Shown here piece after piece: positions 56,395 to 56,937 of a stretch of DNA of 64,000 nt. The notes under the pieces are model-generated. The model saw only the letters and a list, made by a program, of their open reading frames with translations, was not told where the DNA came from and made no database searches. Source of the DNA: Escherichia coli (GTDB lineage Bacteria; Pseudomonadota; Gammaproteobacteria; Enterobacterales; Enterobacteriaceae). The position numbers and the translations under genes were made by a program. Numbering within the stretch: the stretch's first letter is position 1; each line of letters starts with the position of its first letter. Where the stretch lies: assembly GCF_050920415.1 (NCBI RefSeq), contig NZ_CP169309.1; one strand, 5' to 3'.

Positions 56395-56937
56395 ATGGCG
56401 AAATCAGCACTGTTCACGGTGCGTAATAATGAGTCCTGCCCAAAGTGCGGGACTGAACTGGTTATTCGATCCGGGAAACACGGTCCGTTTCTTGGATGCT
56501 CACAGTATCCGGCGTGTGACTACGTCCGTCCTCTGAAATCTTCAGCGGATGGACATATCGTCAAAGTTCTGGAGGGACAGATTTGCCCTGCATGCGGCGC
56601 AAATCTGGTCTTACGCCAGGGGCGCTTTGGTATGTTTGTTGGTTGCAGTAACTATCCTGAATGCGAACATACCGAACTTATCGATAAACCGGACGAAACA
56701 GCAATTACATGTCCTCAATGTCGGACGGGCCATCTGGTCCAGCGCCGCTCCCGTTATGGCAAAACATTTCATTCCTGTGATCGCTACCCGGAGTGTCAAT
56801 TTGCCATTAACTTCAAACCTATAGCCGGAGAATGCCCTGAGTGTCATTATCCGCTACTCATCGAAAAGAAAACCGCGCAGGGTGTAAAACACTTTTGTGC
56901 CAGTAAACAATGTGGAAAGCCGGTTTCGGCGGAATAA
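56395..56937 (+). CDS. yrdD: topoisomerase-type zinc-ribbon protein YrdD
   Basis: 180-aa ORF with four tandem Cys4 zinc-ribbon repeats. Confidence 0.85.

Follow-up and report, generated by a model that had tools for sequence, protein, structure and literature searches.

We found that YrdD of Escherichia coli, encoded at positions 56,395-56,937 of a 64,000-nucleotide (nt) stretch of contig NZ_CP169309.1 (assembly GCF_050920415.1; hereafter the window), is made up of four Cys4 zinc-ribbon modules, an array that stands alone and matches, module for module, the C-terminal tails of type IA topoisomerases (TopA) encoded next to dprA, and that its gene occupies the topA slot of the widespread dprA-(smg)-topA-(tsaC) arrangement. 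We infer that the 3' part of an ancestral dprA-linked topA most likely gave rise to yrdD, and that the working topoisomerase I of this lineage is another TopA, of the E. coli type and encoded elsewhere. The architecture of YrdD, its binding of zinc and iron, and its in vitro binding of single-stranded DNA (ssDNA) are already known, the binding as far as it is described by the papers that cite it; what is new here is the one-to-one module match to dprA-linked TopA tails, the synteny of the topA slot, an explanation for the divergent fourth module, and an estimate of selection on the gene. The gene and its modules lie in the window as follows:

56395..56937, + strand: yrdD coding sequence (ATG start; 180 amino acids (aa), 19.9 kDa, isoelectric point 8.6; tandem stop TAATAA)
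56437..56517, + strand: zinc-ribbon module 1 (residues 15-41; CPKC-x16-CSQYPAC; generic 'type A'; β3 aromatic F32; 61.8 bits against PF01396)
56584..56664, + strand: zinc-ribbon module 2 (residues 64-90; CPAC-x16-CSNYPEC; 'type A'; 71.6 bits against PF01396)
56710..56796, + strand: zinc-ribbon module 3 (residues 106-134; CPQC-x18-CDRYPEC; 'type B'; 61.8 bits against PF01396)
56833..56913, + strand: zinc-ribbon module 4 (residues 147-173; CPEC-x17-CASKQC; divergent 'type C'; 16.2 bits against PF01396)

The translation holds 16 Cys (8.9% of residues), grouped as four CxxC...C...C modules with the spacings CxxC-x16-C-x5-C (modules 1 and 2), CxxC-x18-C-x5-C (module 3) and CxxC-x17-C-x4-C (module 4). 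A first-pass annotation, made from the letters of the window, had described a stand-alone 180-aa protein of four such modules, which the translation matches exactly, and had written all the repeats as CPxCG-x(n)-C-x(5)-C, a formula that holds for modules 1 and 2 but fails at CPxCG in modules 3 and 4 (CPQCR and CPECH) and also at the second pair of module 4, which is C-x4-C and lacks the YP motif. Four such modules arose in 0 of 20,000 composition-preserving shuffles of YrdD, and among the 162 six-frame open reading frames (ORFs) of 100 aa or more in the window, no other contained more than one.

Against PF01396 (Zn_ribbon_Top1; gathering threshold 32 bits) the whole protein scored 180.8 bits (E=3.4e-54). 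When the modules were scanned singly, modules 1-3 each passed alone and module 4 failed, its match extending over half of the profile; the profile hidden Markov model (HMM) search proposed at first pass therefore upheld three canonical units and not the fourth. The same Pfam search of the 180-aa protein found neither Toprim (PF01751) nor Topoisom_bac (PF01131), as had been claimed from the sequence, and the NCBIfam topA models matched at their C-terminal ends only, far under their cut-offs (57 bits vs. 456, and 96 vs. 868). Since the leader before the first ribbon is 14 residues long and smg ends 28 nt upstream of yrdD, there is no room for a catalytic core. We considered YrdD as a type I topoisomerase (TIGR01051/COG0550) and rejected this, because it has no Toprim and no Topoisom_bac with the catalytic tyrosine; lacking these domains, YrdD is not a topoisomerase.

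An exhaustive phmmer search with YrdD returned 7230 relatives, 201 of them below 1e-30, some being stand-alone proteins of 175-205 aa and others topoisomerases of full length. TopAs of 756-773 aa (P0155; P0163, from a Coxiellaceae metagenome-assembled genome (MAG), HCU05088.1; P0178; and P0182/P0275, from a Gammaproteobacteria MAG) aligned colinearly with YrdD from residue 8 or 12 to residue 174 or 180, at 42-46% identity and 152-166 bits, and P0163 and the Gammaproteobacteria MAG proteins P0275/P0276 are examples of dprA-linked TopAs of ~760 aa with this likeness. Like YrdD, the tails of these enzymes carry four ribbons in the order A-A-B-C, with inner spacings of x16, x16, x18 and x17/18 and closing pairs spaced x5, x5, x5 and x4, and they end a few residues past the last Cys; unlike YrdD, they have a ~580-aa core of Toprim and Topoisom_bac ahead of the array. 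Several relatives of 280-590 aa, considered as possible new architectures, turned out to be either longer arrays of ribbons or truncated topA gene calls, in which a Topoisom_bac fragment is joined to ribbons.

The correspondence extends to the individual modules. In a matrix scoring the modules of YrdD against those of the TopAs, modules 1 and 2 behaved as one interchangeable generic type, and module 3 always found its best match in the penultimate TopA module, with which it shares the x18 spacing and an RSR.GK.F..C motif; that module is the third in TopAs with four modules and the fourth in TopAs with five, a shift by one. Module 4 best matched the terminal TopA module in four of six comparisons and was never close to type A. 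Because its best matches are terminal TopA modules, and because the terminal module of TopA P0163 is likewise missed by PF01396, module 4 is not a peculiarity of YrdD; it corresponds to the module with which TopA tails of this class normally end, and the array would have been inherited in one piece.

The neighborhood of the gene points the same way. The order dprA-smg-yrdD-tsaC reported at first pass was confirmed by domains and annotation, with the neighboring genes placed as follows:

54797..55921, + strand: dprA, which opens the cluster (Pfam DNA_processg_A, SAM_SMF and DprA_WH, and annotation)
55893..56366, + strand: smg (DUF494; PF04361, E=3e-59, and annotation)
56942..57514, + strand: tsaC, threonylcarbamoyl-AMP synthase (GTG start; PF01300, annotation and sequence)

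The cluster is compact, with a 29-nt overlap between dprA and smg, 28 nt from the end of smg to the start of yrdD, and 4 nt from the yrdD stop to the GTG start of tsaC; two oppositely oriented genes, def and fmt, precede the co-oriented series dprA-smg-yrdD-tsaC-aroE-yrdB. The same core, dprA-smg-yrdD with tsaC next to it or nearby, was found in E. coli, in 79 of 80 Enterobacteriaceae loci, in Vibrio hepatarius (L005) and on a gammaproteobacterial contig (L007); purE and purK stand between yrdD and tsaC in Vibrio and L007, and tsaC is inverted in L007. On a Gammaproteobacteria metagenome contig (L004, positions 5049-8908), the order is dprA-topA-tsaC with no smg, so that a full-length topA (773 aa) sits exactly in the position of yrdD in E. 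coli. Related arrangements are fmt-rsmB...dprA-topA (759 aa) in L002 and L003, and dprA-topA-trmFO-xerC in L010 and L093; dprA stood directly upstream in 4 of the 5 full-length topA loci examined. In the literature, dprA-smg-topA is a co-transcribed operon of Neisseria meningitidis, and dprA lies next to topA in representatives of 14 of 24 phyla (PMC5817196). A distant blastn search with a dprA-linked topA against E. coli genomes gave no match. Across the loci compared, yrdD thus sits in the topA slot of the arrangement. Three loci that lack dprA and smg, L008, L009 (Thorsellia anophelis) and L011, nevertheless keep the yrdD-tsaC pair. In L008, the YrdD homologue is preceded by a 780-aa gene that was considered as a split topA and is a P-type ATPase.

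We compared YrdD with topoisomerases of known structure. Its sequence relatives among solved structures were E. coli topoisomerase I (EcTopA) chains only, 4RUL_A and 9GDA_F (E ~2e-11), and the match spans EcTopA residues 598-794, that is, domains D5-D7 and the start of D8. An AlphaFold2 model, built on a 35-sequence alignment, was all-β with three to four strands per module and a mean predicted local distance difference test score (pLDDT) of 75.8, reaching its highest value (~90) over module 4. The four best Foldseek matches of this model in the PDB were again EcTopA (9GDH_F, 4RUL_A, 9GDC_F and 9GDA_F; E 5e-5 to 5e-4), with low template modeling (TM) scores, as expected for a string of small, independently oriented domains. 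The modules are predicted to adopt the small antiparallel β-sheet zinc-ribbon fold. The likeness to the C-terminal zinc-ribbon array of topoisomerase I that was noticed at first pass is borne out in this way by the PF01396 match, by D5-D7 of 4RUL and 9GDA, and by the Foldseek ranking; the structure prediction proposed at that stage gave all-β ribbons, and the searches led to PF01396 and the topoisomerase I fold and not to an unrelated one.

In the HMMER alignment to 4RUL, F32 of YrdD falls on F616 of EcTopA D5, and R77, F78 and F81 fall on R724, F725 and Y728 of D7. In the 4RUL structure, F616, R724, F725 and Y728 stack on or contact ssDNA bases, with ~3 nt per domain; the β3 aromatics that stack are F616, Y728 and F780; these ribbon contacts are sequence-independent; and the substitutions F616L and F616E lower relaxation activity (PMC4678816). 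YrdD shares with EcTopA D5-D9 (4RUL, and the RNA polymerase-topoisomerase I complexes 9GDA-9GDH) the Cys4 ribbon fold and the positions of the β3 aromatic and Arg. However, in EcTopA there are three Cys4 ribbons, one of them, D6, with an insert and no DNA binding, followed by the Cys-less, ribbon-like D8 and D9; YrdD instead has four, and neither its module 3 nor its module 4 finds a close counterpart in D5-D7, the segments used for the module comparison. Sequence similarity between the two proteins is also much weaker (47 bits) than that of YrdD to the dprA-linked TopAs. By description, YrdD may also be likened to eukaryotic TOP3alpha and TOP3beta, in which tandem 4-Cys ribbons belonging to this family and thought to bind single-stranded nucleic acid follow the type IA core (PMC4678816); unlike YrdD, those ribbons are eukaryotic and joined to the catalytic core.

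The residues implicated by this comparison are conserved. All 16 Cys, F32, F81, F125, R77 and several nearby Arg and Gly were invariant in 35 Enterobacterales orthologues (67-86% identity), and position 78 was F or Y in all of them. Across a wider set of 30 stand-alone relatives (35-72% identity), 13 Cys were invariant, C15, C18 and C67 were each kept in at least 90%, and the four-module plan persisted down to 35% identity; Vibrionaceae and other gammaproteobacteria have the same architecture at 43-57% identity. The stand-alone family (COG0551-only proteins of gammaproteobacteria) is characterized by ~175-200 aa, the order A-A-B-C, a short N-terminal leader with a conserved LF, no other domain, and a gene placed behind dprA-smg, immediately ahead of tsaC, or both, a description that E. 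coli YrdD fits. The four Cys of module 4 were invariant in the 35 Enterobacterales sequences despite the variability of F167.

The window interval is the known E. coli gene yrdD: its DNA matched the annotated yrdD of E. coli NZ_CP169399.1 at 100%, two or more complete E. coli genomes with a RefSeq yrdD have it at 100% identity, and nearly all others have it at 95-99%. It was found in 5425 of 5426 complete E. coli genomes (matches covering at least 80% of the query); one genome had no match, one carried two copies, and one copy was plasmid-borne. The median NG86 ratio of nonsynonymous to synonymous divergence (dN/dS) was 0.070 for yrdD (74 Enterobacteriaceae), 0.072 for tsaC and 0.157 for dprA, the ratios being approximate, with dS for these genes at ~1.2-1.7, near saturation. 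The most constrained gene of the cluster is smg (median dN/dS 0.026, 71 Enterobacteriaceae), and a literature search on DUF494/Smg gave nothing useful on its function. YrdD peptides have been detected by mass-spectrometry proteomics (PMC6857472). Given the dN/dS, the conservation and this detection, yrdD is a functional gene under strong purifying selection. Its transcription is repressed by DNA relaxation (PMC545778), and a review lists it among the genes induced by hypernegative supercoiling (PMC8301835); this supercoiling-responsive transcription suggests that YrdD works where DNA is under-wound or single-stranded.

We reasoned that these observations would be accounted for if YrdD consists of four Cys4 ribbons on flexible linkers, equivalent to a complete C-terminal DNA-binding domain of a type IA TopA, with each module probably held by one Zn(II), as the fold and the invariant Cys suggest. 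Modules 1-3 would expose the β3 aromatics F32, F81 and F125, with nearby Arg and Lys, for base stacking, and through them YrdD most likely coats ~9-12 nt of ssDNA or a single-strand/double-strand junction independently of sequence. The array would have arisen as the 3' part of an ancestral dprA-linked topA and been kept under purifying selection, and it may act at under-wound or single-stranded DNA, for example by binding or protecting unpaired strands, possibly with DprA. YrdD is most likely a sequence-independent ssDNA binder that responds to supercoiling, and we consider it probable that the molecular description (a ribbon array that binds ssDNA) and the origin from a TopA tail hold jointly.

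Several points weigh against this reading and should be set beside it. Module 4 lacks a conserved β3 aromatic (position 167 is F, C, Y or S), and D6 of EcTopA is an example of a ribbon that does not bind DNA (PMC4678816); for these two reasons, it is uncertain how long the footprint is and how many of the modules bind DNA. The binding of zinc and ssDNA by YrdD is taken from descriptions in PMC4678816 and PMC6495748, and the searchable literature yielded no in vivo phenotype and no partner of the protein. The origin from a dprA-linked topA draws on a handful of loci, one operon from the literature and a neighbor-joining tree of stand-alone proteins and TopA tails. That tree is compatible with a core YrdD group that is sister to the four-module gammaproteobacterial TopA tails, and we do not rely on it, for it has long branches and no support values, and some of the metagenomic 'stand-alone' sequences that fall among the TopAs may be fragments. 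The profile search of genome contigs covered the 80 closest loci, all of them Enterobacteriaceae. A TopA tail may instead have been duplicated and then inserted at the yrdD site. Finally, the yrdD-tsaC pairing where dprA and smg are absent is unexplained by a role centered on DprA.

That pairing is the starting point for a different account, in which YrdD is an RNA- or tRNA-binding accessory of TsaC that holds single-stranded RNA (ssRNA), such as an anticodon loop, or tethers TsaC to its substrate. It would fit the 4-nt gap between the two genes in E. coli, the retention of the pair in L008, L009 and L011, and the full topA directly before tsaC in L004; binding of RNA is conceivable as well, since base stacking by TopA ribbons is sequence-independent. 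Fusions of YrdD with TsaC (Sua5_yciO_yrdC) that keep the four-ribbon YrdD also speak for it: they are 352-419 aa long and form seven divergent clusters (members P0136, at 6001-7260 of L011, P0280, P0281, P0282, P0283, P0284 and P0218), one of which, P0283 (90% identity), includes a 364-aa fused form and split forms of 175 + 185 aa from several samples. However, the search that gave these fusions also found TsaC fused to AroE (shikimate dehydrogenase), in several clusters, and to HemF (coproporphyrinogen oxidase) (P0296, P0285, P0286, P0324 and P0291), so that fusion appears to track adjacency and not shared function; for this reason, and because fused and split forms coexist in one cluster, we down-weighted the YrdD-TsaC fusions as Rosetta-stone evidence. 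The TsaC-AroE fusion P0296 (463 aa, 87 member sequences) lies on many long contigs and looks real in some lineage. The intervening purE and purK in Vibrio and L007, and the inverted tsaC of L007, likewise argue against a tie to TsaC. We also counted against it that N6-threonylcarbamoyladenosine (t6A) synthesis has been reconstituted from TsaC, TsaB, TsaD and TsaE without YrdD, and that many bacteria bearing TsaC have no YrdD. On balance, we regard a TsaC accessory as unlikely.

The published work on the C-terminal domain (CTD) of topoisomerase I suggests another possibility, that YrdD acts in trans as a competitor or mimic of the TopA tail and thereby tunes the access of TopA, with RNA polymerase or the upstream fork of the transcription bubble as its site of action. 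This too seems improbable to us: the interaction of the topoisomerase I CTD with RNA polymerase is DNA-dependent, the junction contacts are made by D7-D9 and YrdD has no counterpart of D8-D9, and YrdD is far closer to the other TopA lineage than to EcTopA. The chemistry of the protein offers a further candidate, a metal-responsive Fe/Zn sensor or buffer in which the identity of the metal at the Cys4 sites switches nucleic-acid binding. Four Cys4 sites in 180 aa would suit such a function, as would the in vitro Fe/Zn binding and Zn(II)-dependent ssDNA binding of YrdD attributed to Cheng 2014 (Biometals 27:229) by PMC4678816 and PMC6495748, and the competition of zinc with iron in vivo that these papers describe for YrdD and TopA. 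The conserved residues extend beyond Cys to the DNA-stacking aromatics and basic residues, though, and no metal-regulon context is visible around yrdD. Iron in Cys4 zinc sites is moreover common on overexpression and need not be physiological, which we counted against a sensor, and we consider it quite unlikely. Lastly, the topA slot, the missing catalytic domains and the absence of a documented phenotype in the searched literature would all suit a yrdD without function, a remnant of a decayed topA that an essential operon simply carries with it. This is highly improbable: it is contradicted by a dN/dS equal to that of tsaC and below that of dprA, by the invariance of the 16 Cys in Enterobacterales and the architecture kept in Vibrionaceae and other gammaproteobacteria, by the presence of yrdD in all but one of the E. 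coli genomes, and by the detection of the protein.

Returning to YrdD as the ribbon array of a former TopA, we note a bolder extension of this reading, which we hold to be doubtful: a dprA-linked topoisomerase I could have been lost except for its strand-binding half, YrdD, which was kept independently and acts in trans on ssDNA, on single-strand/double-strand junctions or on ssRNA, either together with DprA and Smg, on DNA that is unpaired or incoming, or with TsaC on tRNA. The persistent yrdD-tsaC pairing and the recurrent natural fusions are a hint for the TsaC/tRNA version.

Some further features of the region were recorded. The tandem stop TAATAA and the tsaC start region occupy positions 56935-56944 of the window; the ORF list gives an alternative in-frame GTG for tsaC at 56897, which would overlap yrdD by 41 nt, and the RefSeq start is 56942. 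A terminator-like hairpin (56615-56631, + strand; 7 pairs and then a T-rich tail) within module 2 of yrdD is probably due to chance, as the region has no excess of such sites over the shuffle expectation (7 vs. 5.1 ± 2.6); the scan for promoters and terminators as a whole gave no signal beyond that expectation. Downstream, a TTG-started ORF of 293 aa at 58567-59448 on the - strand encloses yrdA (gamma carbonic anhydrase family), which in RefSeq is 184 aa (58567-59121); the N-terminal extension resembles a non-coding leader read through.

YrdD has already been described in part. Peter et al., 2004 included yrdD, as a 'putative topoisomerase' with no assigned function, among the genes repressed by relaxation (PMC545778); Tan et al., 2015 noted its four 4-Cys ribbons (PMC4678816); work from the Ding and Tan groups presents it as a homologue of TopA that binds iron and zinc (PMC6495748); and COG0551 is named after it (PMC6300522). 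The first-pass annotation called its role not well defined, which is fair, as the literature, to the extent that citing papers relay it, gives in vitro binding of Zn/Fe and ssDNA and no physiological role. Product names in databases vary among 'DNA topoisomerase family protein', 'type I DNA topoisomerase', 'DNA topoisomerase 1' and 'topoisomerase DNA-binding C4 zinc finger domain-containing protein'. Since there is no catalytic domain, the first three claim too much, and 'type I DNA topoisomerase' is enzymatically wrong.

The current understanding of the family is unchanged by these results, and their practical value lies mainly in correct labelling, because the names imply a topoisomerase and YrdD has no catalytic domains. 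They also frame experiments: here a TopA tail has been kept after loss of the enzyme, in an operon with DprA, Smg and TsaC, which makes YrdD a natural system for asking what the C-terminal domain of a topoisomerase does alone. Were YrdD indeed the trans-acting half of a lost topoisomerase, either version, with DprA and Smg or with TsaC, would provide a first physiological role for this conserved 'y-gene' and for the dprA-smg-yrdD-tsaC cluster.

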